DNA of 64,000 nucleotides. Origin: a bacterium (GTDB taxonomy: Bacteria; Babelota; Babeliae; Babelales; JABJEI01). The DNA is taken from positions 9,129-73,128 of the forward strand of contig JABJEI010000019.1 in the NCBI GenBank assembly GCA_018663245.1, in the 5' to 3' direction. A model generated the notes under the pieces. The model saw nothing but the letters and a program-made list of their open reading frames with translations. It did not search any database and was not told the DNA's origin. A program made the position numbers and the translations under genes. This document shows positions 1,637-63,400 of the stretch, piece by piece. Every line of letters begins with the position of its first letter. The first letter of the stretch is position 1.

Positions 1637-1750
1637 CAGCGTAGACGGATCGAGCTAACTTTCATGCTTTGTTTTCTTACAAGCAAATATCTAAATTTTT
1701 AGCGAGGGGTTGCTTCCGTCTTCGCAAAAGGCTTCGCAGGCCAGGCAAGG
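1637..1750. repeat. Copy of the dispersed modular intergenic repeat family (other loci at ~16.57, 32.2-32.6, 48.2-48.8, 52.7-52.9 kb)
   Basis: Shares the blocks gacggatcgagcta, tttttagcgaggggttgc and ccgtcttcgc..aaggcttcgcaggccaggcaagg with the other loci, in direct or reverse-complement orientation. Confidence 0.75.
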
Positions 1751-16468: not shown

Positions 16469-16568
16469 CGTAAACAAAATGAATCCAATTTAGCAGCGTT
16501 AGCGTTAAGCAAGAAACAAAACAGCAAAGATTAATTTTTTTACAGCTTAGCAATGAGCTACTGTTAGA

Positions 16569-16597
16569 CTGGATCCCTGTTCAAAGCCGGGGATGAC
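16569..16597. repeat. 29-nt hairpin repeat unit (reverse complement of the unit at 48623-48651)
   Basis: ctggatccctgttcaaagccggggatgac compared with gtcatccccggctttgaacggggatccag gives 1 mismatch. Internal 7-bp stem ATCCCCG/CGGGGAT. Confidence 0.8.
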
Positions 16598-16831
16598 AAA
16601 AGGAATAATTTTTTCAACAAGCCTTTCGCTAATGACGGGTAGCGTTAAGACGAACTCAACATAGTTTATTTTTAGAGGCTTTAGCGAATAGATCTTTCCG
16701 TTATCTTAAAGCAGGATTACCAAGTTCATAACCGTTAATACACTAAAAAGGTTTTTTTTAAAATGAGAAAGCCTTTGTCGTGTACAGACTAATTTCTCAT
16801 TTTACCTAAACTTTGATCGCGTAATAAAAAA

Positions 16832-25336: not shown

Positions 25337-25483
25337 AAAAAACCGCTTAGCAGGCTTAAAAATATACCGACTGTAGTTTAACCAAGAGATGTTTGTGGAT
25401 CAAGGTTTTGCGCCTTTATCCATACTTTTTTGCTCTAATCAATCTCTTATGTTAAATAAATTTTCAATTAGAATTGATTTTCA

Positions 25484-25512
25484 TTGCAAAAACGGTGTAT
25501 ATGTTGTATAAT
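25484..25512 (+). promoter_or_regulatory. Near-consensus sigma70 promoter for the giant coiled-coil gene
   Basis: TTGCAA, 17-nt spacer, TATAAT. It lies inside the 5' extension of the tracked ORF, which argues for the downstream start at 25561. Confidence 0.6.
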
Positions 25513-25560
25513 AGATTTAATGGTATGGAGGTTTTAGAAAAGTTATTGATGGGTACCATA

Positions 25561-28500
25561 ATGAAGAATTTAAACATACTAAGTTTCCTGGCATTTTTGT
25601 TGGTCGCTGTTCAGGCGCCAATTTTTTCTATGCAAAAACAGCTTCTTACCGATAGATCTACGGGTCAGAATGTGAAATCGATCGTTAATATTGATACTGC
25701 GAAGAATAGAGCTAGAGTCTTACAGAGGCATTCTGTTATCAATGATCCGAATGCAAATCCGTTAAGGGCTATTTCACATCAAGTACCTGTTGCGAATGAT
25801 CTAAAAAAGATAAAAAAATCTGAGCAGAAAGTTGTGTCTGATCTGTTTGATCATGAGGCTAATTACTCTATTGATACGGATTCTATTGATTATGATGCTT
25901 TCAATTTGAGCGATGAACCTAAAGTAAGTTTGTCAGATGCTGCAGAAGCTATGGCAGGATTTAGTGAGGGACTTAAGTCTTTGTATGTTTATGGCAAAAC
26001 GGCTTTAGCTAACGCTGCAATACGCAGGTTAAAGGGCCCGAATAAGCAAGGTTCGCAGAATGAGCCTGTTAAACAAACTGCTGATGACATTCGAGCTTCA
26101 GTGGATTTAGCAACAATTATGAACATTATAAATGGCGCTCAAAGAGCGAAAAAAGCTTTTGATATAAGCCAAGTGAAGATTGCTTTTTTAAATAAAGAAG
26201 TAGCAAGTCTAAAAGATCAAAATGCCACTAATAAATCTGAAAGAACGTTAGTCGACAAGCGGCTGTCTGAACAGAATAAAATTTCTGAACAAATGCAGAA
26301 CAGGCTTCAGGCTATGAATACTAATGCTGCAAAACTGGAAGCTCAGCTTCGACAAGAAGTGCAAAAGAGTAAAGGTGATCAGACTAAGATTTCTAAAAGG
26401 CTCGATCGATTAGGTGAGGATCTGAAGAAAAGTCAGATCGCTAACGCAAAGTTTGTAGATAGAATTAATCAGTCAAAATCTGCGAATATTGGGTTAGAAA
26501 ATCAACTTGCGCAAAAGAATCTGTCTTTTACTGACTTGCAAACTCAGTTTGATGAATTACAAAGTAAGCTTGAGGCACAGCTAGAACGCGAGCGTCAATC
26601 AACCGACCTTGAGAAGACTACGACTGACGAATTAAACCGATTTAAAGAACAGGTTAAGAAGCTTGAGGGTAAAAATACCACCCTTGAGAATAATAATGCT
26701 CAAATAAAGCAAGATCATGAAAAACAACAGGAAGAACATCTTAAAGATAAAATGGCTTTCCAAGAGAATAATGATGCTTTAAAAAATAAAATAGAATTGG
26801 CTAAGCAGAAAATTACTTCCACGGAAATGAACGTTGAAGCTATTAAAAAAGCTACAAAAGCAAGACATGAAAAAGATAAAGAAGATATTGAGCAGATGAA
26901 AATTTTGCAGCAAGAAGCGCTTGATAAGCAAAATGCGTTGGATGATAAACTAAAAGCTAAAGAACAAGAAAATATAAGTCTTAAGAATAACAATGTCGCG
27001 ATTTCAAATGAGCTTGAGCTTGCTCGAGAAAGCTTCAGAGGTGATAGTAAAAAGTTATTAGAGCTTATCGAGTCGACGAAGGCTCAGATTTCCAAATCAA
27101 AAAATAAGCTTGCTGAACAACAGAAGATCAATGAAGATCTTAAAAGTCAGTTGGATGGTGCGCATAATACTTTAGATGAGCAAGCTACAAAGTTGGCTGA
27201 AGAAAACAAAAAACATGCAGAGCGTGAGGGGAAACTTGAAGCGCAGATTAAACAAGCGAATGATGCCAATCTGGCGTTAACCAAAAAGAACAATGAAGCT
27301 GCTCGTGATCAAACGCATACCTATGAACAAGAACTTGCCAAGCAGGAAGCTAAATTAGGTCGTGAGAAGCAGAAAAATGAGCTTCTTGAGTTGCACAATA
27401 ATGATATTTTAACAAAATTTAATAGTGATAGAGCTGGCTTTAAAGAAGATAAAGAGAAGCTAGTTGCTATGGAAGCATCGACGAAGGCTACACTTGTCGA
27501 AGCAAGCAAAAAACATGCAGAGCGTGAGGGGCAACTTGGGACGCAGATTAAACAAGCTAATGATTCCAACCTGGTACTGACCCAAAAGAACCTTGAAATA
27601 CAAAAGCAAGCTACAGAATTACAAAAAAGTTTGACGAAGGCTAAAGCTAGTACTGCTGCACAAGCAAAAACGGCAGAGATTTCACGCAAACAAAAAGAAG
27701 AAGAGTACAAGGTGAACCTTGAAAAGCTAAATACTAAATCAGATGAGCAGGCTAAGCGCTTAGTAAGTCTTGATAAAGAATACAATGAGCTTGAGTGGCG
27801 CTTTAAGCATAACTTGTACGAACTTAATAAAAAACATACGAGTGAATTAAAGGTTGAAAAGCAAAAGCGTGATAAGACTGAGCAAGACTTGAAAAAAAGT
27901 CAGATTAATCTTTCAGCTGCGTTAAAGCGTAGCAAAAAATTTAAGGAATCTTTGGAGGATCAAGGGAAGCGTCTTGAGTTCGAGACTAGAGCGCTTCGCT
28001 TAGAAGAAGAAAAATTATCGTTAGCAGTTGAACAGCAAAAGATTGCCGCTGAAGAATCTAAAAATAAACTTGTCAAAAAGCAGCGCTTACTTGAAGGGTT
28101 GCAAACGAAGCTAACACAGCTTGAGGATCAACTTGGAGCGCAGATTAAACAAGCTACTGATACCAAAGCAGTATTGACCAAAAAGAACGTTGAAGCGCAA
28201 AAAAGAGCTACAGAATTACAAGAAAGTTTGACGAAGGCTAAGGATAAGACCTCGCAAGTGCAAAATGCCACTATTCAACAAAAGCTAGTCTACGAACAAA
28301 AGCTTGATAAGCAACGAGAAAAATTCAAGTCAGAATTTAGCTTGATGGAACAAAAATCGAAAAATAAAGCTGCAGATTTTAGTGCTTTAGAGGCTGAAAA
28401 TAAAACGCTTAATAAGAATATTACCTCGTTAACTACAAGCGCAAAAGAAGCCGATAAAGCTTCTAAGAACAAGATAGAGTCTCTTAATAGTTTGAATGCT

Positions 28501-31041
28501 GAACTTAAAGCGAAGGCTGTAGATAAGGCTGTGCAAGTACAGAAAGATATTGAGCAACAAAAGCTGGCTTACAATAAAAAATTAGCTAGTCTTAGTCGTC
28601 AAAATAAAACATTGACCCAAAATAACGCTGACACGCAAAAACAAGTTACGAGGCTACAAGATAGTCTTAAGGCAGTTGAAGATTCGCTTACACAAGCACA
28701 GAAGGCTGCTGAGCAACAAAAACAAGCTCATGAACAAGAGCTGAATGTAAAGAAGCTAGCTAATAGACTCTTAACTAGCGAATTGAGTACTGCAAAGGCA
28801 AAGCTAACCGAACAAGGCGATAGCCTGAATAAACTTGAGCTTGAAAATCAAAAAGTTATAGGTAGAAATAAAGACTTCGTAAATAATTCAGTATTAAAAG
28901 CTAGGCAAGCACAGAAAAAGATTGAGCAACAAAATAAAGAGCTGAATGCACAAAGTTTAATCAACAAAAGCTTAACTACTAAGCTGAATGTAGTAGAACA
29001 AGCATTGAGTGATAAAGCTGCAGATTTGAATGCTTTAGAAGCTGAAAAGAAAACGCTTAATAAGAATGTTGTTTCGTTAACTACAAGTTCAGAAAAAGCT
29101 GATAAGGCTACCAAGCTAGAGATTGAATCTCTTAATAGTCGCAATGCTGAGCTTAAAGCGAAGGCTGTAGATAAGGCTAAGCAAGTACAGAAAGATATTA
29201 AGAAACAAAAATTGGCTTATGAACAAGAGCTTGATGAGCGACGTAAAGCTAATGAAAGTACAGTCGCCAAGTTGGAAGCGGCGGAAAAAATATCTAATGA
29301 ACAGATGGTAAATTTAACTAACCTTGGTAATGAAAACAAGGCGCTTGATAAGAAAAACATAGAACTAATTAGACAGATTGTCCTGCTCAAGAAGCAAGGT
29401 GAAGATACGGTTACGCAAGTTCAGATTGCTTCAGAGCAACAAAAGAAAGCTTACAAACAAGAGTTGGATAAGTTGAAGGCGCAACGCGACTTGGATGTTC
29501 AGAAGCTTAAGGAAAGCAATAAGCAGGCTTTAGCTGCAGCTAATAAGACGCAGATTGAACGAGAAGATAAGGCTCAACAGGAACTTAATGAGCAACAAAA
29601 GAATTCAGACAGGCTGCTTGCTGAACAAGAAGCAAAACTGCGCAAAGAACTGGCTGATGCTGTGAGTAATCAAAGAAAGCAGCTTAAGAAAAATATGACA
29701 AGAGAATTGAGTAAGCAAAAAAATAAGTTAAATAATGAAAAAATTACAAAAATTAACGAAGCTGAGCAGAAGTTTGCTAAATCGCTGCAAGAAGCTATAG
29801 ATTCAAAAGAAACGTCTGACAAGCAGGCTAAGCAAGCTAAAGAGCGTTATATTCAGTCGCAATTGAGTGCTAAAAAAGAACTCGATAAGCAGAGAATAGC
29901 TAATTCGACTAAACTTTCTGAACAAAAAAAATCGCACGACTTGGCACTAGCCAAAGCGTTACAAAAACTACAGTTTGCGGCCAAAGATCAGAAGGCAAAG
30001 TTTACAAAAGAGCTTGCATCACAACAAAAAATTAATGGTGATCAGGTTAAAGACCTCGCAACTTTAAAGACAAAATTAGATAAACAAGCGGATACTTTGG
30101 GCAATACTGAGTCCAAAAATAAAACGCTTGAAATAGAAAAGAGTAATCTTGAGAAGATGATTGCAGAATTAAGAGCTAAAATAGCTCAACAGCAAAAGTC
30201 TTCAGCCTCGCAGATTTCTACCTTGACCCAAGCATTGGCTTCAAAATCTACTGGATCAAATAAGGATGTTCAGAATCTGATATCGATTAAAGACCAGAAG
30301 ATTGACCAGCTAGAAACGCAGGCCAAGCAATACGAACAAAATTTAGGAAACCAGCTTGCGATTAGCGTGCAGGAGCGTAAAAACCATCAGCAACAAGTTG
30401 ATACCCTAGATAAGCAAAATGCGCGTAACATTACCAATATCAAGCGACACAATCAACAGCAAGTGCAACAAAAACAGCGTAGAATAGATATACTTGAGCG
30501 ACAGCTGTTGAATGTGCATCGGGGTAATTTTTCTGAGGATGTAAATCAATCCATGAACGATGATTTAATTGAAACGCTTCAACGGCAACGGGCCGAAAAT
30601 CAATCTTTGCGCACGCAATTAAGTGATGTTCAACAAACGACAAGCGCTACATCGAAACCAATTTTATCAACTACTCCAGTTATTGTGAAAAGAGTTGTGT
30701 CGACAGTTAGTAGCAAAAAACCTGTGAAGCCAACAAAGCAAACATTAATATCAAAGATTGCTGCACTTCTACCGAGCGAGATTCAAATTGATAATGGTAG
30801 TGAAAGTGATTCTGACACAGAGTCCGACATCTCTGATACATCATCAGTTAATTCAGATGATGCAGAATCAACAACTTCGACAGACTCTAATTCATCTAGT
30901 TCTTCTAGATCACCACAATCAAGTACGCAAACAAACACTAGCCAAGATTCAACCTCATGGTGGACAAGGCTGCTTTATGCAACCGGCGTAGGTGTTGGTG
31001 TTGCTTCGTTTGTTTTCTTTGGAATACCGCTAGTTCTTTAA
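25561..31041 (+). CDS. Giant (~1,826 aa) coiled-coil protein with N-terminal signal peptide/TM and C-terminal TM anchor
   Basis: MKNLNILSFLAFLLVAVQAPIFS N-terminus. About 1,600 aa of K/E/Q/L-rich heptad-like sequence with internal repeats. S/T/D-rich linker. C-terminal WWTRLLYATGVGVGVASFVFFGIPLVL. Confidence 0.8.
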   Translation: MKNLNILSFLAFLLVAVQAPIFSMQKQLLTDRSTGQNVKSIVNIDTAKNRARVLQRHSVINDPNANPLRAISHQVPVANDLKKIKKSEQKVVSDLFDHEANYSIDTDSIDYDAFNLSDEPKVSLSDAAEAMAGFSEGLKSLYVYGKTALANAAIRRLKGPNKQGSQNEPVKQTADDIRASVDLATIMNIINGAQRAKKAFDISQVKIAFLNKEVASLKDQNATNKSERTLVDKRLSEQNKISEQMQNRLQAMNTNAAKLEAQLRQEVQKSKGDQTKISKRLDRLGEDLKKSQIANAKFVDRINQSKSANIGLENQLAQKNLSFTDLQTQFDELQSKLEAQLERERQSTDLEKTTTDELNRFKEQVKKLEGKNTTLENNNAQIKQDHEKQQEEHLKDKMAFQENNDALKNKIELAKQKITSTEMNVEAIKKATKARHEKDKEDIEQMKILQQEALDKQNALDDKLKAKEQENISLKNNNVAISNELELARESFRGDSKKLLELIESTKAQISKSKNKLAEQQKINEDLKSQLDGAHNTLDEQATKLAEENKKHAEREGKLEAQIKQANDANLALTKKNNEAARDQTHTYEQELAKQEAKLGREKQKNELLELHNNDILTKFNSDRAGFKEDKEKLVAMEASTKATLVEASKKHAEREGQLGTQIKQANDSNLVLTQKNLEIQKQATELQKSLTKAKASTAAQAKTAEISRKQKEEEYKVNLEKLNTKSDEQAKRLVSLDKEYNELEWRFKHNLYELNKKHTSELKVEKQKRDKTEQDLKKSQINLSAALKRSKKFKESLEDQGKRLEFETRALRLEEEKLSLAVEQQKIAAEESKNKLVKKQRLLEGLQTKLTQLEDQLGAQIKQATDTKAVLTKKNVEAQKRATELQESLTKAKDKTSQVQNATIQQKLVYEQKLDKQREKFKSEFSLMEQKSKNKAADFSALEAENKTLNKNITSLTTSAKEADKASKNKIESLNSLNAELKAKAVDKAVQVQKDIEQQKLAYNKKLASLSRQNKTLTQNNADTQKQVTRLQDSLKAVEDSLTQAQKAAEQQKQAHEQELNVKKLANRLLTSELSTAKAKLTEQGDSLNKLELENQKVIGRNKDFVNNSVLKARQAQKKIEQQNKELNAQSLINKSLTTKLNVVEQALSDKAADLNALEAEKKTLNKNVVSLTTSSEKADKATKLEIESLNSRNAELKAKAVDKAKQVQKDIKKQKLAYEQELDERRKANESTVAKLEAAEKISNEQMVNLTNLGNENKALDKKNIELIRQIVLLKKQGEDTVTQVQIASEQQKKAYKQELDKLKAQRDLDVQKLKESNKQALAAANKTQIEREDKAQQELNEQQKNSDRLLAEQEAKLRKELADAVSNQRKQLKKNMTRELSKQKNKLNNEKITKINEAEQKFAKSLQEAIDSKETSDKQAKQAKERYIQSQLSAKKELDKQRIANSTKLSEQKKSHDLALAKALQKLQFAAKDQKAKFTKELASQQKINGDQVKDLATLKTKLDKQADTLGNTESKNKTLEIEKSNLEKMIAELRAKIAQQQKSSASQISTLTQALASKSTGSNKDVQNLISIKDQKIDQLETQAKQYEQNLGNQLAISVQERKNHQQQVDTLDKQNARNITNIKRHNQQQVQQKQRRIDILERQLLNVHRGNFSEDVNQSMNDDLIETLQRQRAENQSLRTQLSDVQQTTSATSKPILSTTPVIVKRVVSTVSSKKPVKPTKQTLISKIAALLPSEIQIDNGSESDSDTESDISDTSSVNSDDAESTTSTDSNSSSSSRSPQSSTQTNTSQDSTSWWTRLLYATGVGVGVASFVFFGIPLVL

Positions 31042-32115: not shown

Positions 32116-32204
32116 GGGCTTTATACCCCTCATACACCCTCCCGAACTATTGTTCTTTTTTTCTTAAACTCTTTCTTTTCTTACAAACAAATCGTTATTT
32201 AATT

Positions 32205-32619
32205 TTTTAGCAAGGGGTTACTCGCCTAACCCCTTGCATACAATGGCGCCAAAGGAAAACCTTTGGAATCCTTACGCAGAAAACATTGCAACCAGAAGCT
32301 AACGCTTTTAGGTTGCTTCAAACAGTTCAGCTAATCATGAAGACCTTTAGAAATTTACTTTGTGCGCAACTTGCCAATCCTGAGAAACCTGAAGTCTCGG
32401 CGTAGCCTTTGGCGAAGACGGATCGAGCTAAAGCTCTGCAATTTCTTCAACAGTCCTGTCCGGCGAAGCTTTACGCGAAGCCTGGAACACGCTAAGCGTA
32501 GTTGTTTTTAGAAGGTCTCTCCGATCTGCCTAGTTGTGAAAAAACACTCTCTCCTTTGTCATCCCCGGACTTCATGCCCTTCGTAGCTGTTAAGCGAAGT
32601 AGGGTGAACGGGGATCCAG
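32205..32619. repeat. Mosaic of dispersed repeat modules (hairpin 1, hairpin 2, linker modules, GCGAAGC-TTTR-GCGAAG module, 'gtcatcccc..ggggatccag' unit with expanded loop)
   Basis: Module-by-module matches to 48387-48651, 52681-52930 (reverse complement), 1637-1750 and 33702-33732. Confidence 0.8.
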
Positions 32620-32820
32620 GACTAATTTTCCTTCCTAAATATATGAAACTGTATAATAGCGGTGCAGTATGCGTAGTAAATGACTACAAAGTCGGCTTTG
32701 ATGCACCCGTTTTTACACACAAAGTATTGCAATTAGAGTAATAATTGTGCTACGATAAATGTAATAAGAGGGGCCATAAAGGCGCCTTAAAAAGAGTTAT
32801 TATTCATGAAGGAGTTTGAA

Positions 32821-33325: not shown

Positions 33326-34247
33326 ATGCCAAATTTTTATCGTTGCCGCCAAGATGGAACAAGAGGAGCCCACCGCTTACAAGCGCAACAGAGCTCCAAA
33401 ATGACCACGAAACAGCTTCGCCAAGCATAAGCCAGCCAAATAAAGCTGCAAACAGCGGTGTGCTTAGGCCAGCAAGTGCCATGAATGTTGCACTGTAACG
33501 GCGCAAAAGATATCCGTACAGGTTGTAACAGATAAAGTTAGATATTAGTGCCATAGCAAGCATAATTTTAATAAATGGCCACCAACTTGTTATTAGAGGG
33601 CCGGTACTTACTCCAAAGAAGTGTGTATGGCCTAGTGCAATTGCTCCACCGATTGTCATAGCATAGCCGTTGGCAAGTATCGGGCTTACGCCTAACTTGG
33701 GCCTGCCCGGCGAAGCTTTACGCGAAGCCTGGGTTAACTTTTTCATACCAATCCAACCAAGCACGGTTGCCGTTGATGCGCCAAGCATAGCTAGCTCAGG
33801 CCACGACAAAAAACCAACCGCTGACAATTCTGCCTTGGTATTCCAGAGTAAAGCTGGAACAAAGCCAAAAATACCTATAATAATCCCAATCCACTGTCGT
33901 TTGCGTAATCGTTCAGAAAACGCTCCGTACGATACTAATGCAGTAATAAACGGCGACAGGCTGTATATAAAACAGGTCTTTGCAGCGCTCATGTGCTGCA
34001 AAGACCAAAGTTCTAAAACATTTGTTACGTATATTCCAAGGAAGGCGAGCAAGAATAAAGCTGGTATGTCTTTGCGCTTGAGCTTAATTGTGCCGTGCCT
34101 AAATCCATGCCATGCAAGCATTAACAGGCCAGAACAAAGCATACGAAGACCAACAGCAAAAGCTGGAGTCGTGTAGGTTACGGCCATGCTGCCTAGCGGA
34201 AAGGCGAGCGCAAAAAGCGCAAATAGCGCAAAAACTAGCAAAATCAT
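33324..34247 (-). CDS. EamA/DMT-family transporter (10-TM) carrying a repeat-derived insert in the central loop
   Basis: Two EamA-like halves of hydrophobic helices. The central loop ..TQASRKASPGRPKLG.. is encoded by a 26-nt exact copy of an intergenic repeat module. Confidence 0.8.
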   Translation of the reverse strand: MILLVFALFALFALAFPLGSMAVTYTTPAFAVGLRMLCSGLLMLAWHGFRHGTIKLKRKDIPALFLLAFLGIYVTNVLELWSLQHMSAAKTCFIYSLSPFITALVSYGAFSERLRKRQWIGIIIGIFGFVPALLWNTKAELSAVGFLSWPELAMLGASTATVLGWIGMKKLTQASRKASPGRPKLGVSPILANGYAMTIGGAIALGHTHFFGVSTGPLITSWWPFIKIMLAMALISNFICYNLYGYLLRRYSATFMALAGLSTPLFAALFGWLMLGEAVSWSFWSSVALVSGGLLLFHLGGNDKNLA

Positions 34248-43570: not shown

Positions 43571-44550
43571 TTAGCGGTTACCGTCTCCGTCGAAATTTGC
43601 TTGTTTCTGAAGCCAGCTTAATGTTGGGCGACGGTAATTTTTTGTGATTTTCTCTATTGGTGAGTTTGTTTTTTTGTTTTTAAATGGGTTGACCTTCGGG
43701 CTATTCTTTGCTGAATGAAGTTCTTTGATTACTTTTTTTAATTTTTCTTTACAATTTTGATTTTCTAAAAGTTTCTGTTTGTTTGTTTGATTATCGGCAA
43801 TGAGCTGGCTGTTGGTGGTACTTAATGTTTGGTTCACTGCTTCAGCTTCATTGGCCAAGCTTTTTTGAGTTTCTAATTCATCGGTGAGTTGGCTGTTGGT
43901 GTTAGTTAATTCTTCGATCTTTGTAGCCGCTAGTTGGATTGCAGTTTTGATTTTAAGCTGGTTTTCTTCGGTTAAGTTTGTTTGAGTTTTTAATTGATCT
44001 GTGAGTTGAATGTTGGCATCAGTTAATTCTTTTATCTTTGTAGTCGCTAGTTGGATTGCTGTTTTGATTTTAAATTGGTTTTTTTGGTTAAGTTTGTTTG
44101 AGTTTTTAATTGATTTGTGAGTTGAATGTTGGCATCAGTTAATTCTTTGATCTTTGTAGCCGCTGGTTGGATTTCAGTTTTGATTTTAAGCTGGTTTTCT
44201 TTTGCTAGGTTCTCTTGCTTTTTCAAATCGTTGGCGAGCTGAGCGTTGGCGGCTCTTACTTTTTCCAGTTCGACAACAAGCGTGCTTGCTGTTTGACTTA
44301 CTTCTTTCGTTTGACTTCTGGTCAGATTTGCGTTGGCAGTTGTTAATTTTGCAACAGTCTTTTTATTTAGATTAAGAACGTATAGCAGATAAAAGGACAG
44401 GCTAACTCCCATTGCGGCTACAATTGGAACGACTTTTCTAACAACTTTTTTATATGTAGGCCTAATGAGTTTTAACTTGAGTCCGCTAGTTTGAGTTGCA
44501 ATTGGAAGTGTGGCTGTAATTGCGAGCGCGATCAGTAATAGCTTCTTCAT
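43571..44550 (-). pseudogene. Signal-peptide/TM coiled-coil surface protein interrupted by a -1 frameshift in a T7 (coding-strand A7) tract
   Basis: ORFs 44047-44550 and 43571-43858 are in adjacent frames. Adding one A at 44079-44085 gives a continuous ~326-aa ORF. The repeat unit holding the tract is 116 bp while its neighbour is 117 bp. Confidence 0.8.
43860..44210 (-). repeat. About three tandem 117-bp (39-aa) coding repeats
   Basis: Landmark ttgtag(c/t)cgct(a/g)gttggatt recurs at 43921, 44038 and 44154. Encoded unit: ..IKELTDANIQLT(D/N)QLKTQTNLT(E/K)(E/K)NQ(L/F)KIKTAIQLA(A/T)TK. Confidence 0.85.
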
Positions 44551-48055: not shown

Positions 48056-48226
48056 GAAATCCCCTAATTAGTTAAAGTGTCCTTAAGATTATATATATAA
48101 TTATTATATAACTAAATGCATATTTGGTCAAAATAACTTTAATAAGTGGCTTTAGTTTAGCCCCTTATAATCCCATATTTTTACAAAAAGCTTTATCTAA
48201 TTTTAATGCTTTTTTCCAAACTCTTC

Positions 48227-48830
48227 TTGCATCTATACTTTAATACTTTTGCGACTCGTCTTTGCTGTAGCTACGCCGTCACAGGTTTTTAAACTACCTT
48301 TTAATAAATCCCTGTCATCCTCGCGAATGCGGGGATCCAGTCTTTAAATAGATCATTTGATCACCTTTTGCATCTATACTTTAATACTTTTGCGAGGGGT
48401 TGCTCACCCAACCCCTCGCGGACAAGGGTGCCGGGGGAACCCCTGGGCCCCGGCGTGCGTAACTTGAAACCTCGAGCTAAAGCTCTGCAGTTTCTTCAAC
48501 AGAGCGCACTCAACTGAATTATTTATTTTTAGATGGCTTGGCCAAGACAAGGATGGCATGCATCCGTCTTCGCCTAAAAAACGCCTCCCTTGCCTGGCCT
48601 GCGAAGCCTTTGGCGAAGACGGGTCATCCCCGGCTTTGAACGGGGATCCAGTTTTTCAGTAGCTCATTTGAATGTCTGAGAAAGGTTTCTAGATATTTTT
48701 AGACTTTTGCATATTTACTATGAAGTTGCACTTAACGGATAATAGCTTTAGTCCTGGATCCTTGCATGCCATCCTTGTCGCGGCGTAGATGTAGCGAAGA
48801 CGGATTAAGCGATGTCGGGCGAAGTTCGCA
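48227..48830. repeat. Largest cluster of the dispersed modular repeat family
   Basis: Direct repeat cttgcatctatactttaatacttttgcga at 48227 and 48367. Hairpin 1 at 48392-48419. Hairpin 2 at 48431-48446. Units gtcatcctcgcgaatgcggggatccag (48314-48340) and gtcatccccggctttgaacggggatccag (48623-48651). Internal inverted pair 48541-48562 / 48768-48790. Confidence 0.85.
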
Positions 48831-48843
48831 GAACGAAGACTGA

Positions 48844-49548
48844 TTAGATGATTAGCGAAGGATTGCCATCAGTGTCGATATACCAGTTGATTGTAGGCTT
48901 ATCTAGCAGCGGCTTGTAGACAAACAAGTCGTTAAAATCATTCAGATCTTGCGACTGGTCTTCTTGGTTGATGATTTTATACTCTCTGAGCGCAAGTCTT
49001 TTTGCTCGCTCATTATAGTATGCATATAGGAGGCGTGGGAGCTTTTGGAACAAGGCTAAACTTGCTGTTTCAATAACCGCACCTAACACTATATTTTGTT
49101 TTATCCCAGACGTAAACGCTACTTTTAGACTCGAACGTTTACAGATAGCGATTGTAACATTTTTGACCGTAGTCCAAACGAGTTGGCCGCCTACTTGCAT
49201 CGGTATTAACAGTAGGCTTTGTTCTCGATCAACAACAGCAAGGCCAATCTTGCCAAGTGGCCTGGCAAAGGGCTTTATTTTAGCTAGTGGCGCGACTAGC
49301 TTAGAAAGTTGGCTTGGTTTTTTTGCAGCGAGGGCTTTTGTGGCGCCTACTATTTTAGTTGTAGGTGTCGTGCTTTTTATTTTTACACCCAAGTATTTTT
49401 TTGCCAAGTTCGCAGCGGCTAACTCGGCCCCTGTCATAATAAGGCGCCCAGTAAGTCCTGGTCCGTTATCGGCATAAACTGGAAGGTGCGCGCCGAGTAG
49501 GCACGCACCAAGAAAGATTGAGGCAATTGGTTTTAATAATCGTTGCAT
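48844..49548 (-). CDS. Orphan secreted protein (~234 aa)
   Basis: Signal peptide MQRLLKPIASIFLGACLLGAHLPVYA. Ala/Lys-rich. Confidence 0.6.
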   Translation of the reverse strand: MQRLLKPIASIFLGACLLGAHLPVYADNGPGLTGRLIMTGAELAAANLAKKYLGVKIKSTTPTTKIVGATKALAAKKPSQLSKLVAPLAKIKPFARPLGKIGLAVVDREQSLLLIPMQVGGQLVWTTVKNVTIAICKRSSLKVAFTSGIKQNIVLGAVIETASLALFQKLPRLLYAYYNERAKRLALREYKIINQEDQSQDLNDFNDLFVYKPLLDKPTINWYIDTDGNPSLII

Positions 49549-51612: not shown

Positions 51613-52680
51613 TTATTGTTCCATTCACATGAGGGCTTTAATTTAACTACCATCATTTTGGCCCATAAACTAAAGAGCGTCAACAGCCATACCTGCAGAA
51701 AAGCGCCCAGCACAGGCAACAAATGCAACCCAGAGCACTACGATCAACTACGACAGAGCCATAGAGTCGCACGCCAACAAAGGAAGGCCAATCAAGCCAA
51801 TTATGGATCAATAAGGGCTTATCGTATCGCAGATATAGCTACAGACATGCCAGGGGCTCTCCCCTTTCCCTTTTTGAGCTTTTTAACTTTACTAAGAATC
51901 TTATGCAAATCTAAACTCACATACGAGCGAGGCAAATTACTTAACGTGCGATCCACGCAAGACTCGCACAACTCTAGGCGCGAATTACGTACGATGTTAA
52001 TGCACACGTACAGATGAGAATAAGGCTAAGTGTCGGGTATAGGAGTATAAGGGTAAGTATCATGACAAAGAGTTACGCTTGAACTTCGTTAGTCTTACTT
52101 CGTAGTAAAGCTCTATAAAGTATCCATCTTAGTTTTACTTCGACGCGATTCCTTATATAACCAAACCTTAAAGAGACAACCTTATAAACAAAACCCTAAA
52201 AGTTGAAAAACCTAATAAACCAAACACCCTACCCTGCAAAGAAAGCTTAGAAGACTTGCCCCCAAGAACCACCATAGCCCGAACCAGAGAGTTAACGTAG
52301 ACGAGCCCAGTCGACCAACCCCCAAAGAGCTGCCCCCAACGGCCCCGGGAGGATGTGGGGAGTCGGAGTTCTCTGCGTGAGCTCAAAAGTTTGCCTAGGA
52401 GAGAGGCAATGTATCTCTAAAAATAGAAAATCGCGTAGCGTATCCCTAAAAACTTTCGAAGAAATGCTCAAAAGCCCAAGAATAAAGCTAGATTTAATCT
52501 TTTAGTAAGTATTCCGCCAAATTGGTCGTTAGGTTGCTTGGCTTGTTTTTGTTGTAGCGTAGCTGTTAATAATTATCAGACTCTATAATTCATCTGCTTC
52601 GCCTGACGCTCAGTTTTAAAATTGCAAGGGCATGTAGGCGAGAAGTAGCTAAGGTTGTTTGATCTAAAAATCTTTATTAT

Positions 52681-52930
52681 TAGCTAAACTGTTTGAAGCA
52701 ACCTAAAAGCGTTAGCTTCCCAGGCTTGGTTGCCAACTTAAAAGGAATAGATTCTTTTCAAAGCTGGGCGATTATTAGCAGTTCTCTAAAAATAAATAAT
52801 TCAGTTGAGCGTGTCCTGTTGAAGAAATTGCAGAGCGCAGCTCGAGGTTTCAAGTTGCTCGCGTAGGGTATCCAAGGTCCTCCTTGGTGTCCTTGTCCGC
52901 TAGGGGTTGGACAAGCAACCCCTAGCTAAA
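52681..52930. repeat. Modular repeat cluster; 52784-52930 is the inverted partner of 48387-48533
   Basis: Reverse complement aligns module by module with 48387-48533 (by eye ~80% identity). 52681-52730 matches 32287-32335 in reverse complement. Confidence 0.85.
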
Positions 52931-53009
52931 GCTTTTTAAAAAAACGTTGCAAAAAATAGAGCATGCAGTTGAGAACTTAAGAAAAGAGACAATTATAATT
53001 GGGGAGAGT

Positions 53010-53033
53010 ATGAGGGGCAATTAAGCCCCTCAT
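53010..53033 (-). terminator. Hairpin terminator after dnaK
   Basis: atgaggggc-aattaa-gcccctcat forms a 9-bp stem 4 nt past the dnaK stop. Confidence 0.6.
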
Positions 53034-53037
53034 GGTA

Positions 53038-56387: not shown

Positions 56388-56400
56388 AATTAGCACAAAT

Positions 56401-56458
56401 AAGGCTGGTTAACAGCGAGGGGCGCCTTTTCGGACGCCCCTCGCTGTTAACCAGCCTT
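56401..56458. terminator. 58-nt near-perfect palindrome; bidirectional terminator between the 408-aa gene and fibre gene A
   Basis: 24-nt arms aaggctggttaacagcgaggggcg / cgcccctcgctgttaaccagcctt plus 2 more bp around a 5-nt loop. The right arm includes the fibre-gene stop codon. Confidence 0.7.
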
Positions 56459-59400
56459 ATTTGTCTTTTTTATCCTTCTTAAGTTCTTTGCGAAGGTCGT
56501 CTATCTGCGCTTGCATATCTTCAAATCTCGCTTGAACACCCTCATAACGCTCCTTCATATCTTCATTATCATTGCTCAATTCTTGAACAGCCTTAATAAG
56601 TGGCGTAACCAATTCTGCGTAACAAATACTATAATAACCCAATTCAGAATTTGGACGATTCACTGCAAAATCTGGGTGACCATGCCGCATTGCCACCTCA
56701 TCAAGCTCTTGCCCTATCAAACCGTACCTTTGTTTATCACCTTCACCTGCAATAAGGTGATAGCTAACGGTATTTAAATCATTAATAAACTCTAGGCCTA
56801 AATTAGATGGCTCGATATCGCGCTTCAAACGTTTATCAGAAGAAGCGGCCCATGCTGTTGCCCCATTTGTCAGCTTTACACCACCACTTGTATTGCTAAC
56901 CTCAAGCTCATCATCTCCAGAGTCGTACCACATTCCAACGTCAACTCCGTTAGTAAAGGAATAAGCTGGTGTTGATATGGTTCCATCCGTAGCACGCACA
57001 TAACCACTAGCACCATTTAAGGTCAAAACTCCAACAGAACTTAATGCCATTTTTTCTGTTGAATGCGTTGCTCCAACGGCAGTCTTAAATGACAATTTAG
57101 TCGCATGATCGGAACCGGTGTGCCTACTCTCTGCAACAGCCTCAATCGCAGCAACATCATGCTCTCCCAAGCTTTCAGCTGGCGTGTAAAAATCAATAAT
57201 ACCTATCTTATCATCAACCCTAATGTCCGACTCTCCACTGTAAAATCCCAAATATGCTGGCGAATCGTCTCCTGAAGCAGTGTGCTTTATTATTAAGCCC
57301 TTATCAGGATCATGAATAAGACGAACTTCACTATCGGCACCAAACCGAATCACAGAGTTATCTGAACCCAGAACAATGTCATCTACAAATGTCACAACTC
57401 CATCTGAAGCTATAGTCATTGCTGTGGCAGCATTAGCAGAACCAATTGTTCCACCATCCTTGATCTTTATATCGTCAACAAAGGCCACAATACCATCTGA
57501 AGCTATAGTTATTGAACTCGTAGCGCTGGCAGAACCAATTGTGCCGGCATCAGGAATCACTATCGAGCCGCTACCACCATTTAGTGTCAAAACACCAACC
57601 GAGCTTAAAGCCATTTTTTCTGTTGAATGCGTTGCTCCAGCTGCAGTTTTAAACGACAATTTAGTTGCATGATCTGAACCTGTATGCCTACTTTCTGCAA
57701 CAGCCTCAATCGCAGCAACATCATGCTCTCCCAAGGTTTCAGCTGGCGTATAAAAATCAATAATACCAATCTTGTCATCAACTCTAATGTCCGACTCTCC
57801 ACTATAAAAACCCAAATATGCAGGCGAGTCGTCTCCTGAAGCTGTATGCTTTATTATCAGGCCCTTATCAGGATCATGAACAAGATGAACTTCACTATCG
57901 GCACCAAAACGAATAACAGAATTATCTGAACCCATAACAATGTCATCAACAAATGTCACAACTCCATCTGAGGCTATAGTCATTGCTGTATCGGCACTGG
58001 CTGAACCAATCGTTCCACCATCTTTAATTTTGATATCATCGATAAAGGTTGCGATGCCATCCGAAGCTATAGTTATTGCAGCAGAAGTAGTGGCCGAACC
58101 AATCGTTCCGCCATCAGGAATTACTATCGCCCCACTGCTACCATTCAATGTAAGCACGCCGGTTGAGCTAAGCGACATCTTCTCTGCCGCAGCCTCAGAT
58201 GCCGCTGTTTTAAACGACAACTTAGTAGGATTATTTGTAGCGCCAAAAGTAGCCTCTGCAACAGCTTCAATCCCGGCCGCAACCAACACAGCATCCGCCC
58301 CTGTTTCACCTATTGCCTGAAAATCAACTACGCCAATTTTATCATTAACAGCAACAATTGCTTCATCACTTTGGAGGGTAAGAGAAACAGGCTTTGCCGC
58401 ACCTGTAGCAGCATGCTTTAATATAAGACCCTTATCAGCGTTATGAGCAAGCTCAACTTCTTGGTCATTGCCAAAATAGATGACGCCACCATCGGCTAAG
58501 TACAAGTCACTCCACTCAAGACTAGCGCTACCCAAAGCCGCTGAATCAGCCGAAGCCGGTGCTAAAGCACCAGTAAATGTAATACCATCAGAGAAAGTCA
58601 CAATTCCGTCAGAAGCTATAGTTATTGCAGCAGGAGTAGTCATCGAGCCAATCGTTCCACCATCCTTAATCTTGATATCATCGACAAAAGTTACAATGCC
58701 ATCCAAAGCGATTGCTATTGCTGTAGCAGCGCTAGTTGAACCGATCGTTCCACTATCTTTAATTTTGATATCATCGACAAAGGTTACGATGCCATCAGAA
58801 GCTATAGTTATTGCAGCAGAAGTAGTGGCCGAACCAATCGTTCCGCCATCAGGAATCACTATCGCCCCACTGCCACCATTGAGCGTAAGCACACCGATTG
58901 AACTAAGTTTCATCTTCTCAGCGGCAGCTTCTGATGCTGCTGTTTTGAATGACAGCTTGGTAGGATTATTTGTAGCGTCAAAGGTAGCTTCTGCAACAGC
59001 TTCAATCCCGGCAGAAACTAGAACAGCATCAGCTCCTGTTTCACCTATTGCCTGGAAGTCAATGACACCGATTTTATCGGAAGCATCAATAATTGCCTCA
59101 TTACTTTGGAGGGTAAGATATACAGGCGTGTTCGAACCCGAAGCAGCGTGCTTTAATATAAGACCCCTATCAGCAACATGGGTTAAGGTAATTTCTTGGT
59201 CACTACCAAAATATACAATCCCACCATCTGCTAAAAACAGATCACTCCACTCAAGGCTAGCGCTACCCAAAGCCGCACCATCTGCCGAAGCCGGCGCTAA
59301 AGCACCAGTAAATGTAACACCACCAGAACCAGACTTAAGTGCAACTTGTGTTGTACCGTTTGTATTACCTATAGTAATCGTTCTATTAGCCGCACCTGTA

Positions 59401-60134
59401 CCAATATTAATGGCCTGAGCATCCGCATCGTTACCTACATTAATTGCACCACTAGTAGAGTTCAAAGACATAGCACCGGTACAATCAAGATCTATTGTCG
59501 TTGCAGAAGACAGCGTTGTTGTACCTGTTCCACCAAGCACAAATGATGCAGTTCCGTCAGTAAGAGTCAAAGCGTCACCCGACGTAAGCGTGATAGCTGT
59601 TGAAGTAGCTGTAAATGCAGTGTTACCTGGGGAACCAAGCGCCAATGTTCCAGTGCCGTGAGGGTATATCGTTATGTTTTCATTGTCAGCAATGGTGGCA
59701 ATACTAATATCACTTGTAGTATTAATATGCCATCTACTACCCAATAGCGAACGTGAGTATGCATTTAAATTATCGCTAACAATACGCAAAACTGCGTCAT
59801 CTTCGATGCAGTCATGATGATTCTGAAGCAACTCCTGACAGCCATCAATAGCATCCAAAAGAACTTCCATTTCTATCATATGCTTGCCACGTTTAACGCA
59901 TTCAAAAAGCTCGCTAACAGCTTCTGGAATCTCGAGACCGCGACAAGCACGTTCTAGAACCATAACAGCTGGAGCTATATCAGAACCATCAGGCAGAACC
60001 AAGCAAATCTTGCATGAATAGTAATCACTAAATGAATTGTATGAATCCGAACCTTGTACAGCCTTTAATAGTCCTACCGGAAGCAAAAACGATACCAACA
60101 ACAATGCTCTTATTGTACGCGCCGCTGTCTTCAT
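56457..60134 (-). CDS. Secreted repeat-rich fibre protein A (1,225 aa) with C-terminal Peptidase S74-like intramolecular chaperone domain
   Basis: AAGGAG Shine-Dalgarno sequence. Signal peptide MKTAARTIRALLLVSFLLPVGLLKAVQG. Gly/Thr/Ala/Ile-rich beta-type repeats. C-terminal 128 aa start with SSDKRLKRDI..GL.FINDL..VSY......YGLIGQELDEV (Ser-x5-Lys dyad spacing as in endosialidase/tail-fibre chaperone domains) and end in a coiled-coil tail. Confidence 0.85.
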   Translation of the reverse strand: MKTAARTIRALLLVSFLLPVGLLKAVQGSDSYNSFSDYYSCKICLVLPDGSDIAPAVMVLERACRGLEIPEAVSELFECVKRGKHMIEMEVLLDAIDGCQELLQNHHDCIEDDAVLRIVSDNLNAYSRSLLGSRWHINTTSDISIATIADNENITIYPHGTGTLALGSPGNTAFTATSTAITLTSGDALTLTDGTASFVLGGTGTTTLSSATTIDLDCTGAMSLNSTSGAINVGNDADAQAINIGTGAANRTITIGNTNGTTQVALKSGSGGVTFTGALAPASADGAALGSASLEWSDLFLADGGIVYFGSDQEITLTHVADRGLILKHAASGSNTPVYLTLQSNEAIIDASDKIGVIDFQAIGETGADAVLVSAGIEAVAEATFDATNNPTKLSFKTAASEAAAEKMKLSSIGVLTLNGGSGAIVIPDGGTIGSATTSAAITIASDGIVTFVDDIKIKDSGTIGSTSAATAIAIALDGIVTFVDDIKIKDGGTIGSMTTPAAITIASDGIVTFSDGITFTGALAPASADSAALGSASLEWSDLYLADGGVIYFGNDQEVELAHNADKGLILKHAATGAAKPVSLTLQSDEAIVAVNDKIGVVDFQAIGETGADAVLVAAGIEAVAEATFGATNNPTKLSFKTAASEAAAEKMSLSSTGVLTLNGSSGAIVIPDGGTIGSATTSAAITIASDGIATFIDDIKIKDGGTIGSASADTAMTIASDGVVTFVDDIVMGSDNSVIRFGADSEVHLVHDPDKGLIIKHTASGDDSPAYLGFYSGESDIRVDDKIGIIDFYTPAETLGEHDVAAIEAVAESRHTGSDHATKLSFKTAAGATHSTEKMALSSVGVLTLNGGSGSIVIPDAGTIGSASATSSITIASDGIVAFVDDIKIKDGGTIGSANAATAMTIASDGVVTFVDDIVLGSDNSVIRFGADSEVRLIHDPDKGLIIKHTASGDDSPAYLGFYSGESDIRVDDKIGIIDFYTPAESLGEHDVAAIEAVAESRHTGSDHATKLSFKTAVGATHSTEKMALSSVGVLTLNGASGYVRATDGTISTPAYSFTNGVDVGMWYDSGDDELEVSNTSGGVKLTNGATAWAASSDKRLKRDIEPSNLGLEFINDLNTVSYHLIAGEGDKQRYGLIGQELDEVAMRHGHPDFAVNRPNSELGYYSICYAELVTPLIKAVQELSNDNEDMKERYEGVQARFEDMQAQIDDLRKELKKDKKDK
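57011..58138 (-). repeat. Two tandem 564-bp (188-aa) in-frame repeats inside fibre gene A
   Basis: Landmark gccattttttctgttgaatgcgttgctcc occurs at 57046 and 57610. The copies are roughly 90% identical by eye. Confidence 0.85.
58081..59330 (-). repeat. Two tandem 735-bp (245-aa) in-frame repeats inside fibre gene A, containing 93-bp (31-aa) sub-repeats
   Basis: Landmark gcagaagtagtggccgaaccaatcgttccgccatcagg occurs at 58081 and 58816. The 31-aa unit D(G/S)GTIGS...ITIASDGIVTFVDDIKIK is repeated three times around 58590-58850. Confidence 0.85.
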
Positions 60135-60351: not shown

Positions 60352-60366
60352 AATTAGCACACAAAA

Positions 60367-60388
60367 GGGGCGCCTTTTCGGACGCCCC
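60367..60388. terminator. Terminator hairpin after fibre gene B (truncated copy of the 56401-56458 palindrome)
   Basis: ggggcgcc-ttttc-ggacgcccc. The outer 18 nt of the left arm are absent here. Confidence 0.65.
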
Positions 60389-60404
60389 TCGCTGTTGACC
60401 AGCC

Positions 60405-63400
60405 TTATTTGTCTTTTTTATCCTTCTTAAGCTTTTTACGCAGGTCGTCTATCTGCGCTTGCATACTTTCATATTGCGCTTGAACGGCCTCATAACGTGT
60501 TTGCATGTCTTCATACATTACTTGTGTATCTTCAGACCTGCTACTTAACTCCTGAACAGACCTTATCAGTGGAGCTATTAAGCTCGAATAAGCAACGCCA
60601 TACTTTTCGGACTCGCCACCAGGACGGTGAATTCCCGCAAAGTCAGGATGCCCATGCCGCGTTACCACCTCTTCAAGCTCTTGAGCAATTAAGCCATACG
60701 ATGCTTTAGGATTTTTACCAGAAATTCTACGGTAACTAACAGGGTTTAAATCATTGATAAAATCAAGACCCAAATCCGACATCATGATATCGCGCTTTAA
60801 GCATCTATCAGAAGACTCAAAGAAGCCTGTCGAACTGTAAACAGCAGACCAACCAGCTGAAGAGCTTCCAGACTTATAAAGGTTATCACCGGAAGGTAAA
60901 ACATCACTTCTAACCGTAATCGTATCAACCGCGGTATCACCGATGTCCATCATTTTAGTTAACGTACCGTCTGTCCGGGCTGTGTAAAAAATCAAAGAAC
61001 CATCCTCAGCTCCGCTTGTTGCTGTTTTTACCTTAGCCTCAACTCTTGCAAACTCTTGGTTGTTTTGTAGCGTATCATCAGCATAAAACTCAATTGTACC
61101 TGACAAGTCACCAGCTGCACCAGCTGCACCCTTATCCATCACAAAACGGAACTTGGCCGCTGCTGTGTCGTTGGTTGTGTTTTTCAACTCAAACAATGGT
61201 TTTGATGCTGTAGCACTATCGATAATTACCGATGGCGTTGTAGCAAGTACGGCAACCGTCGAGGTAAAGTCAACTGTTGGCGCAACCACATCAAGCTTTG
61301 TATCAGCATCAATATCTAATTGACCGTCAGCGCTTGAAGCTATTGAAATCGCTGAATCTCGGAACTGCAATGCCATAGCGTCATTCAAGCGAACACCCGT
61401 GTCAGCAATATGAGTTAGCTTTACATCCTGATCATTGCCCAAGTTTATAACACTACCATCAGCTAAGAACAGGTCGCTCCATTCAAGGGTTGCTGAGCCA
61501 AGTGCCGCAGCATCTGCTACCGAAGGAACAACACTACCTTTAACTGTCAGAACACCGGTTGAACTGAGCGACATCTTCTCTGCCGCAGCTTCTGATGCTG
61601 CTGTTTTAAACGACAGCTTGGTTGCATTGTTAGCAATTCCAAACGTTCCTTCTGAAACCGCTTCAATACCAGCTGCGATCAAAATTGCATCTGTTCCACC
61701 CGCCTCATCTGGCGCTTGGAAGTCTATTGCGCCAATTACATCACTGACCACAACCGCAGTTGAACCTGTCTGAAGTGTAAGGATCATCGGTGTATTAGCA
61801 GCTGTAGCAACACGCTTGAAGTCAAGCCCATCAGTTGCAGAGTCATGAGTTATCGTCGCATCTGAAGTAGCACCAAAACTTAGAACTGCACTATCTGAAG
61901 CCAAGGAAACATCATCGCCAACCCAAAGATCAGCTGCAACACCAAGGCCACCACCAACTGTCAAAGCACCTGTAGTCGAAGAGCTTGATGCTGTTGTAGC
62001 AGTCACAGCAACTACACCACCCGAGGATATAGAAATCGCATCTGGATCACCAGCAGAACCAATGGTTCCCGCATTCTTGATGAGAACATCATCTACAAAT
62101 GTTACTACTCCATCAGAAGCTATAGTTATAGCAGCAGGAGTAGTGGCCGAACCAATCGTTCCGCCGTCTGTAATTTTCAATGCTACTACACCATCAGAAG
62201 CTATAGTTATGGCATCAGTTGTGCCAACCGAACCAATCGTTCCACTATTGGGAATTATTATCGAACCACTGCCACCATTAAGTGTAAGTACACCGGTTGA
62301 ACTAAGCCTCATTTTTTCTGCGGCGGCTTCTGATGCTGCTGTTTTAAATGATAACTTGGTAGCATTGTTGGCCGCACCAAATGTTCCTTCTGAAACCGCT
62401 TCAATACCAGCTGCGATCAAAATTGAATCTGTTCCACCGGCCTCATCAGGCGCTTGGAAATCTATGGCACCAATAACATCACTTGCCACAACCGCCGTTG
62501 ATCCAGTTTGCAAGGTAAGAATCATTGGCGTGTTAGCACTTGTAGCAACACGTTTGAAGTCAAGGCCATCAGTTGCAGTGTCATGAGTTATTGTTGCATC
62601 TTGCGTATTACCCAAGCTTATTGCTGCACCATCGGCTAAGAATAGATCGCTCCACTCAAGGGCCGCACTGCCCAATGCACTACCATCGGCTGAATTTGGC
62701 GTTAATGCACCACCAACCTTCATTGCGCCGCTTACGTTCACCTCTGAGGAGGCGTTAATGTCAACTGTTGGCGCAGTTATTTCAATTTCTGTATCTGCAT
62801 CAATATCAAGTTGTCCATCTGCGCTTGAGCTTATCTTTAATGCGCTATCGCGGAACTGAAGCTCTCTTGAGCTGTTGAGCAATAAACCAGTATCAGCTAC
62901 ATGTGTCAACGTTACATCTTGATCATTGCCAAAACCCAACACGGCACCATCACCAAGATACAGGTCGCTCCACTCAAGATCTGTTATTCCAAGTGAATAA
63001 GTGTTTGCATCTGAAGGAACAAGACTACCTCTAAAGGTGGCCATCAAGTTGCCAGACATCCCAAGATCCATCGTCAAAGTCTCGGTACCAGCTATCATAG
63101 TGTAGAAGGCTAAAGCACCATCTTCTGTTGTGCTTGTAGGATCTTTAATCCGAGCCTGAACACGAGCATACGTTGTCTGATTACTTGCTGAATCTTCACC
63201 GTCAAAATAAATACCTGCTAAGAAGTCATTAGCTGCTGGACTTGAACTGTTGTTATGCATCTTAACTTGAGGGTATGGGCCCGAACCACTGTCGCCAACC
63301 TGTGTAATTGCCATTCCACCAGTACCAAGATTTACGTTGACCGCTGTTGAACCGGTCGTATTACCAATAGTAATCGTTCGAGCTGCTGCACCTGTACCAA

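Follow-up and report, generated by a model that had tools for sequence, protein, structure and literature searches.

The 64-kb stretch of DNA analysed here (the window) carries a gene for a DMT/EamA transporter in which a short GC-rich repeat lies in frame within the coding sequence; all other copies of this repeat in the window lie between genes. We consider it likely that a member of a family of imperfect palindromes of about 30 nt, similar to repetitive extragenic palindromic (REP) elements, was inserted into this gene in the manner of REPs and Rickettsia palindromic elements (RPEs), and that the insertion was then fixed as a tolerated change. Copy counts refer to these 64 kb and to short loci of relatives.

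Judged by its sequence, the window comes from an uncultured Dependentiae (TM6) bacterium. Its RecA shares ~70% identity with proteins that carry the name Candidatus Dependentiae or Babeliales, and the gene order SurA-RecA-IF3-L35-L20-ZapA-RNase Y-YmdB-EamA is found in other Dependentiae contigs as well. A chlamydial origin of the window is ruled out by this RecA similarity and gene order. The window sequence is represented in the metagenome-assembled genomes (MAGs) GCA_018699675.1 and GCA_018703035.1 and in contigs of several metagenome assemblies.

The transporter gene and its extra segment

The repeat copy is translated on the minus strand as T172-Q-A-S-R-K-A-S-P-G-R182 (TQASRKASPGR). Aligned with 23 homologues, the window protein is the only one with 10-11 extra residues, (T)QASRKASPGR, which coincide with the repeat (segment present in 0/23), and the alignment gap falls exactly at QASRKASPGR. 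The spacing between the flanking GW and AN motifs (GW...AN), scored by regular expression in the 108 homologues that could be scored, is 26 in the window protein versus 16 in 104 and 15 in 4 homologues. The closest relative (P0001, 78% identity) is encoded in the same gene order as in the window (YmdB-EamA-...-pyrophosphatase-MazG), lacks the insert, has a spacing of 15 and reads KKLTQQSISP where the window protein reads KKLTQASRKASPGRPKLGVSP. The segment is likewise missing from the syntenic DMT genes of two other Dependentiae. A metagenome scan with the EamA protein returned distant relatives only (22-62% identity over parts), the P0001 contig not being among them.

The orthologue alignment suggested in the earlier note as a check therefore favours insertion, the ~10-aa segment being absent from all homologues examined. 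The intergenic copies are therefore not derivatives of the gene. The reverse direction, with a segment that originated in the transporter gene and left fragments between genes, would explain the shared sequence only. It is very improbable, given that the family also occurs between genes in other genomes, outside any EamA context, and that identity between the window copies stops sharply at the module edges in a BLAST self-comparison.

The insert is not an artefact of one assembly and is fixed in the sampled population: independent assemblies (NCBI, ENA, JGI) yield at least 23 contigs that encode an identical 307-aa protein, and 11 strain loci, located through the host protein and the pyrophosphatase next to it, match the window at 99.98% identity or more and contain no indels. 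As is characteristic of RPEs, the repeat is present in frame in an otherwise intact, conserved open reading frame (ORF).

On the present comparisons the true inserted length is 30 or 33 nt. Taking out 30 nt (QASRKASPGR) gives the usual family spacing of 16, and taking out 33 nt (TQASRKASPGR, 33702-33734) gives the P0001 spacing of 15. The longer interval is the union of two matches: 33702-33732 matches the intergenic twin within the window, and 33704-33734 matches a copy in another genome (locus L084) at 31/31 positions.

The short spacing of P0001 also bears on the age of the event. If the insertion predated the split from P0001, this relative would have lost its insert by imprecise deletion, leaving a trace. 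Its sequence, aligned as KKLTQQS-ISP, contains TQ, the product of the module 3' end (ACC CAG); the family consensus ends CCTGGGT, and the spacing of 15 is one residue short of the 16 seen in 104 homologues. This history requires two events at one place, and a spacing of 15 is also found in three other homologues. We regard it as improbable.

The host protein is a member of the DMT/EamA family, with two EamA repeats and a DMT fold of ten transmembrane (TM) helices. Pfam EamA (PF00892) matches it in two stretches (E 1e-30), and an AlphaFold (AF2) model built from 24 sequences (mean pLDDT 89.8) has ten long TM helices. Foldseek matches this model to the DMT fold, including the triose-phosphate translocator 5y78 (TM-score 0.77), YddG (5i20), the CMP-sialic acid transporter and LicB (5y78, 5i20, 6xbo and 7paf all with probability 1.00). 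Searching solved structures by sequence gave just a spurious match to a designed-repeat protein. The aligned homologues other than P0001 are 44-51% identical to the host protein, and the few with source names are chlamydial DMT proteins. One homologue, P0070 (46-47% identical), is annotated as an S-adenosylmethionine/S-adenosylhomocysteine transporter, and going by this annotation only, the host protein may transport the same compounds.

The earlier note placed the insert in a tolerant hydrophilic loop, and located that loop between the two EamA halves. The loop is borne out by the model and its location is not. The linker between the two five-helix halves comprises residues 135-148, including a short beta hairpin. 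It is followed by a helix (149-177), a loop (178-188) and a further helix (189-215), and residues 173-182 form the end of the first of these helices and part of the loop, i.e., they lie in the TM6-TM7 loop. Within the model, internal confidence is lowest in the insert region (about 73). Counts of K and R put the 48-57, 110-116 and 169-188 loops on the positive side, and by the positive-inside rule the TM6-TM7 loop is probably cytoplasmic. The peptide (T)QASRKASPGR is small, basic and hydrophilic; because the rule places the loop in the cytoplasm, its three added positive charges (R, K, R) should be harmless there.

The following course of events is likely. A module from a dispersed, otherwise intergenic family inserted into the EamA coding sequence. 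The reading frame was kept because the added DNA is 30 or 33 nt long, with no stop codon in the frame used. The encoded peptide ended up in the TM6-TM7 loop, predicted to be cytoplasmic, the transporter most likely still works, and the insertion became fixed. The insert appears to be neutral rather than functional, and for the EamA gene itself the most likely consequence is nil.

Two further observations concern this gene. Chlamydial homologues (~47%) are nearer to the host EamA protein than are its syntenic counterparts in other Dependentiae, the DMT genes at L140:15306-17079 and L142:14573-16579 (28-36%). A replaced paralogue, or transfer among lineages with protist hosts in common, could account for this. 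At 33975-34006 (-), a perfect 12-bp stem with an 8-nt loop is followed by TGTTTTATAT on the sense strand. This terminator-like structure sits inside the gene, in a conserved WSLQHMSAAKTCFIY coding segment, and could be a coincidence or an attenuator.

The repeat family, its hairpin and its probable spread

The 26-mer CCGGCGAAGCTTTACGCGAAGCCTGG occurs at exactly two sites in the window, 32460-32485 and 33707-33732, and a search allowing up to three mismatches finds just these two. BLAST lengthens the pair to 31 nt with one mismatch (96.8% identity; 32455-32485 vs 33702-33732). The earlier note had reported this shared 26-mer, and had also assigned the gene copy to a family with a GCGAAG-type motif; both statements hold. 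The looser motif GCGAAGNNTTNNGCGAAG, with up to two mismatches, has five sites in the window versus ~0.5 expected by chance, and a covariance model of the family, run without filters, recovers the same five sites at 27-38 bits along with three weak ones (Table 1). Seven of these eight copies are intergenic, and the copy in the EamA gene is the sole intragenic one. Its GC content is 0.62, compared with 0.41 for the window. Chance resemblance of the copies, or an assembly artefact, is effectively excluded: no match of the 26-mer is expected by chance, not one was found in 100 dinucleotide-preserving shuffles, and the identical host protein recurs across independent assemblies, as described above.

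Table 1. Positions of the host gene, the repeat copies and related elements in the window
Feature	Position	Strand	Score, evidence or remark
EamA/DMT transporter gene hosting the insert, 307 aa	33324..34247	-	ORF list, Pfam, homologues, structure model
Intragenic module copy	33702..33734	+ (GAA strand on +)	37.7 bits, E 1.8e-7
Hairpin core of intragenic copy, C CCGGC GAA GC TTTAC GC GAA GCC(T)GG G	33706..33733	+	read from sequence
Intergenic twin of gene copy	32455..32486	+	37.5 bits
Related module, GCGTAGCC TTTG GCGAAGACGG subtype	32393..32424	+	28 bits, E 6e-5
Related module, CCTGCGAAGCC TTTG GCGAAGACGG subtype	48595..48625	+	29.8 bits
Related module, subtype as 48595-48625	1713..1743	-	27.2 bits
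GCGAAGNNTTNNGCGAAG sites	1720-1737(-), 32400-32417, 32463-32480, 33710-33727, 48601-48618		motif search, <=2 mismatches
Filled CGTC-type (dRS3-like) REP, TGTC-ATCCCCGG...CGGGGAT-CCA	32557..32618	+	regular expression and alignment with three empty copies
Empty CGTC-type REP	48622..48650	+	
Empty CGTC-type REP	16570..16598	-	
Empty CGTC-type REP	48313..48339	+	8-bp stem, 4-nt loop, CCA tail
Intergenic mosaic of short shared modules	32116..32805	.	BLAST self-comparison
Comparable mosaics	1505-1896, about 16550-16690, 48056-48843, 52018-53037		

The family consensus is 5'-(CC)TG YCCGGC GAA GC [3-5 nt] GC GAA GCC(T)GG R-3'. Read as a single strand, it is an imperfect palindrome in which two facing GAA triplets are conserved and non-complementary. 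The hairpin core measures 28 nt and the conserved unit 31-33 nt, within the 20-40 bp usual for REPs. In a covariation test on 25 distinct copies, the hairpin model leaves 87% of cells paired versus 24-41% with slid 3' partners. At the outer end of the stem, the closing pair (3-29) is C-G in 12 copies, U-A in 7 and a third type (U and G) in 2, and the innermost pair (14-18) is C-G in 5, U-A in 3 and G-C in 2. A stem-loop is thus supported across copies, with compensatory types at two pairs and an invariant GAA/GAA mismatch within the stem. The gene copy and its intergenic twin differ at two bases alone, both in the closing pair (C33706...G33733 in the gene, T32459...A32486 in the intergenic copy). 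This fits the hairpin, an argument weakened in that G33733 may belong to a pre-existing Thr codon. Translation of the module shows five of its six reading frames to be open.

Other hallmarks of known repeats were looked for at the module. CCTG precedes both the gene copy and its twin on the 5' side, GGT or GAA follows on the 3' side, and neither copy carries a GTAG or a CGTC tag; the ...GAAGACGG subtype has CGTC on the reverse strand, but within the stem. The terminal inverted repeats and target-site duplication of a miniature inverted-repeat transposable element were not found, the whole unit being one hairpin, and no direct repeat flanks either window copy beyond the family consensus. Rfam has no match at the module in the window or at 7 other loci, at gathering or E-value thresholds, and a promoter and terminator scan found nothing there.

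Insertion of a similar unit can be seen in a second type of repeat. Four window REPs are of a CGTC/dRS3-like type, tagged with TGTC or GGTC, with ATCCCCG in the stem and CCA as the tail (regular-expression scan), and one of the related modules (48595-48625) immediately adjoins such a REP. One of the four, at 32557-32618, has exactly 33 extra nt in its loop; its three paralogous copies are short-looped and empty. That 33 nt were inserted into the loop of this REP is clear. The core of the nested unit (32575-32606) reads CCCTTC GTA GC ... GC GAA GTAGGG, and its assignment to the module family is tentative, going by a covariance model score of 13.4 bits (E 0.41).

The modules and REPs stand in a wider context of repeats. 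Five intergenic mosaics share modules of 20-70 nt in varying combinations at 85-100% identity. Another GC-rich module type (…CGAAGTTCGCAGAACGAAGACTG…) is present at 48813-48845, and an unrelated Dependentiae-like contig has a module of similar form (L144:6379-6632). Several module types may therefore be common to the phylum Dependentiae.

The filled and empty sites suggest that the module is mobile, and we infer that the family spreads by insertion of the REP/RPE type, probably acting on the hairpin. Mobility, as claimed in the earlier note, can be upheld in this form. The exaptation into proteins claimed alongside it cannot, as the evidence is for a tolerated insert only.

Several points weigh against an insertion of this type. 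Pfam scans of 35 window ORFs found no transposase and no RAYT (Y1/HUH), the sole recombinase being an Xer-like tyrosine recombinase, and neither a target-site duplication nor terminal inverted repeats were seen. The empty site of the close relative P0001 is known from its protein sequence, which leaves the insert edges at 30 versus 33 nt. The copies used in the covariation test were chosen by a regular expression that already demanded Y...R and GG, which makes the pairing partly circular, and nearest-neighbour folding of the module is no better than that of shuffled sequences (z = -0.5 to +0.9). The nested 33-nt unit is just a weak family match, and the unbiased sample of other Dependentiae, described below, is small (59 kb). 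Finally, the nearest known copy is just 1.25 kb away, which is also compatible with local copying.

Such local ectopic copying, by template switch or short-patch gene conversion during replication or repair, from the intergenic copy 1.25 kb away is the main rival explanation. The two copies are close, have the same orientation and agree at all positions of the 26-mer. Both carry CC (33702-33703 and 32455-32456), which is absent from the L084 copy, and the lack of any visible transposase or target-site duplication would also fit. The difference at both closing-pair bases is mildly against copying, as is the 3' end of the gene copy, where GGT agrees with the consensus elsewhere (L084, L017, L062, L097) and the neighbouring copy has GAA, with the qualification that GGT could be a pre-existing Thr codon. 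Other family members behave in an insertion-like manner elsewhere, in a REP loop and at the 3' ends of genes. On balance we hold local copying to be unlikely and prefer REP/RPE-type insertion from the dispersed family.

Copies in other genomes and further features of the window

A scan of genome contigs with the degenerate pattern CCNGCGAAGCNTTNNGCGAAGNC gave mostly chance matches in high-GC coding DNA. Among the matches listed, about thirty have the same architecture, including flanks that the pattern does not specify. These include near-identical copies (29-31-nt identity) in low-GC MAGs, several of them Dependentiae; at the L084 locus, for example, PBP2 has a Dependentiae protein as its best named match. 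Also among the matches listed are variants without the bulged T, in bins labelled Verrucomicrobiota, Lentisphaerae/Lentisphaerota, Pirellulales (Planctomycetota), Dadabacteria, Thermodesulfobacteriota, Bradyrhizobium and others. A scan of viral contigs for the module gave 0 matches.

In two other low-GC MAGs, a module copy overlaps the 3' end of a gene and encodes, in frame, a C-terminal tail with the sequence QASHKASPG. The first of these genes encodes an aminotransferase (L035:208-1905(-)), in which the Pfam domain ends at residue 521 of 566, and the second a GIY-YIG protein (L017:2892-3335(+)), with its domain at residues 26-97 of 148. Relatives of the L084 locus offered no clean comparison of presence and absence, as both gene order and intergenic content differ.

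An unbiased sample of sequence around recA in three other Dependentiae contained 1 copy in 59 kb, and because of this low number the family is not uniformly abundant across the phylum.

Some of the bins carrying the module deserve separate mention. Three loci (L044, L068, L142) belong to one bin (MAG 3300053698_98) labelled 'Alteromonas naphthalenivorans'. This bin has about 36% GC, a Dependentiae gene order around recA, and a RecA that is 71% identical to that of the window; by these sequence features its label looks wrong. In the Lentisphaerae SIG90 bin (L022, L033, L049, L059), the module is part of a longer repeat with flanks that are identical at four loci. Records labelled Bradyrhizobium (L016, L061, L067, L072, L073, L098) contain a perfect version, CCCGGCGAAGCG TTT CGCGAAGCCGGG, with conserved flanks in 5/6. 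The exception is L067, which has GCC instead of GCG in the perfect version, and in L016 the perfect version lies about 70 nt upstream of a tRNA gene.

Tentatively, the GAA/GAA hairpin (YCCGGC-GAA-GC...GC-GAA-GCCGGR) may represent an undescribed class of sequence-constrained elements common to several phyla. Under this possible but doubtful reading, either a hairpin-specific enzyme would place units of ~30-33 nt in the loops of REPs, at gene ends and in coding loops, or the constancy of the hairpin would be due to a conserved host protein that binds it.

The window has other repeats and large ORFs. Rfam, run over the whole 64 kb, identified no tRNA or other family at gathering score. Convergent genes are separated by a perfect inverted repeat of 30 bp with a spacer of 10 nt (56395-56464), which has a related copy 3.9 kb away (60366-60412); an Rfam match of these repeats to 'mir-5881' is spurious (45.8 bits, below the gathering score of 87). 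An 1855-aa ORF at 25474-31041 is rich in K, E and Q, has many internal repeats and matches no Pfam family on precomputed gene calls. Its start is called differently among assemblies (1826, 1846 or 1855 aa). Two adjacent large ORFs, at 56457-60134 and 60405-63896 (-), encode paralogues of 1225 and 1163 aa, whose internal repeats have 564- and 735-nt spacings. Tandem repeats of 117 nt (43851-44264) and 123 nt (63489-63857) were also found.

Comparison with known systems

The in-frame insertion of REPs and RPEs is a known phenomenon, of which the Dependentiae example is new. The module family itself appears to be undescribed. Literature searches on the GCGAAGC motif brought up nothing beyond primers and unrelated binding sites, and found no paper linking Dependentiae with REPs. 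As far as this search went, REP-type elements and mosaics like those of Neisseria and Rickettsia are apparently undescribed for Dependentiae. The insertion is a clean, datable case in which selfish or structural repeat DNA has been made part of a protein, in a poorly known phylum of obligate protist parasites; the transporter concerned probably plays a central part in what the bacterium scavenges from its host. The invariant GAA/GAA mismatch and the near-identity across species point to a recognisable hairpin, which could be used to seek the enzyme or protein that acts on it.

The closest parallel is with RPEs and intragenic REPs, and the analogy with RPEs drawn in the earlier note is apt. A survey of REPs (Di Nocera et al. 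2013, PMC3733652) describes single REPs in frame within ORFs, others at the ends of ORFs, and clusters that make up mosaics, and according to the same survey RPE-4 and RPE-6 are themselves CGTC-type REPs. As in those cases, a normally extragenic palindrome is found in frame in an intact gene of an obligate host-associated bacterium, where it adds ~10 residues in a loop or at the surface. The host differs, being a member of the Dependentiae and not Rickettsia, and membership of the module in RPE-1 to RPE-8 is not claimed. RPE-1 is several times longer than the window module.

Unlike catalogued REPs, the window module has neither a GTAG nor a CGTC tag, and its stem is broken by the conserved GAA/GAA triplets. 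The main text and available supplements of PMC3733652, figures aside, do not contain the string GCGAAG(C)/GCTTCGC. According to the same survey, RAYT (Y1/HUH) goes with GTAG REPs, and the CGTC type has no known dedicated transposase (PMC3733652).

The window mosaics, with their short modules in varying combinations, are comparable to the Neisseria dRS3/NIME and E. coli BIME mosaics. The CGTC-1/dRS3 type, which includes Neisseria dRS3 and R. conorii RPE-6, is described in the survey as tagged with TGTC or GGTC, with AT at the start of the stem and CCA as the tail (PMC3733652), and the four window REPs fit this description. The transporter gene, by contrast, carries a module other than the dRS3-like one, and no phage or IS110-type integration was seen.

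A looser likeness can be drawn to organelles. GC-rich palindromic repeats have spread in the non-coding, and occasionally the coding, DNA of AT-rich organelle genomes, as in Volvox and in fungal mitochondria. The window module (62% GC vs 41%) may be likened to these GC-rich hairpins, by analogy only and across different types of genome.

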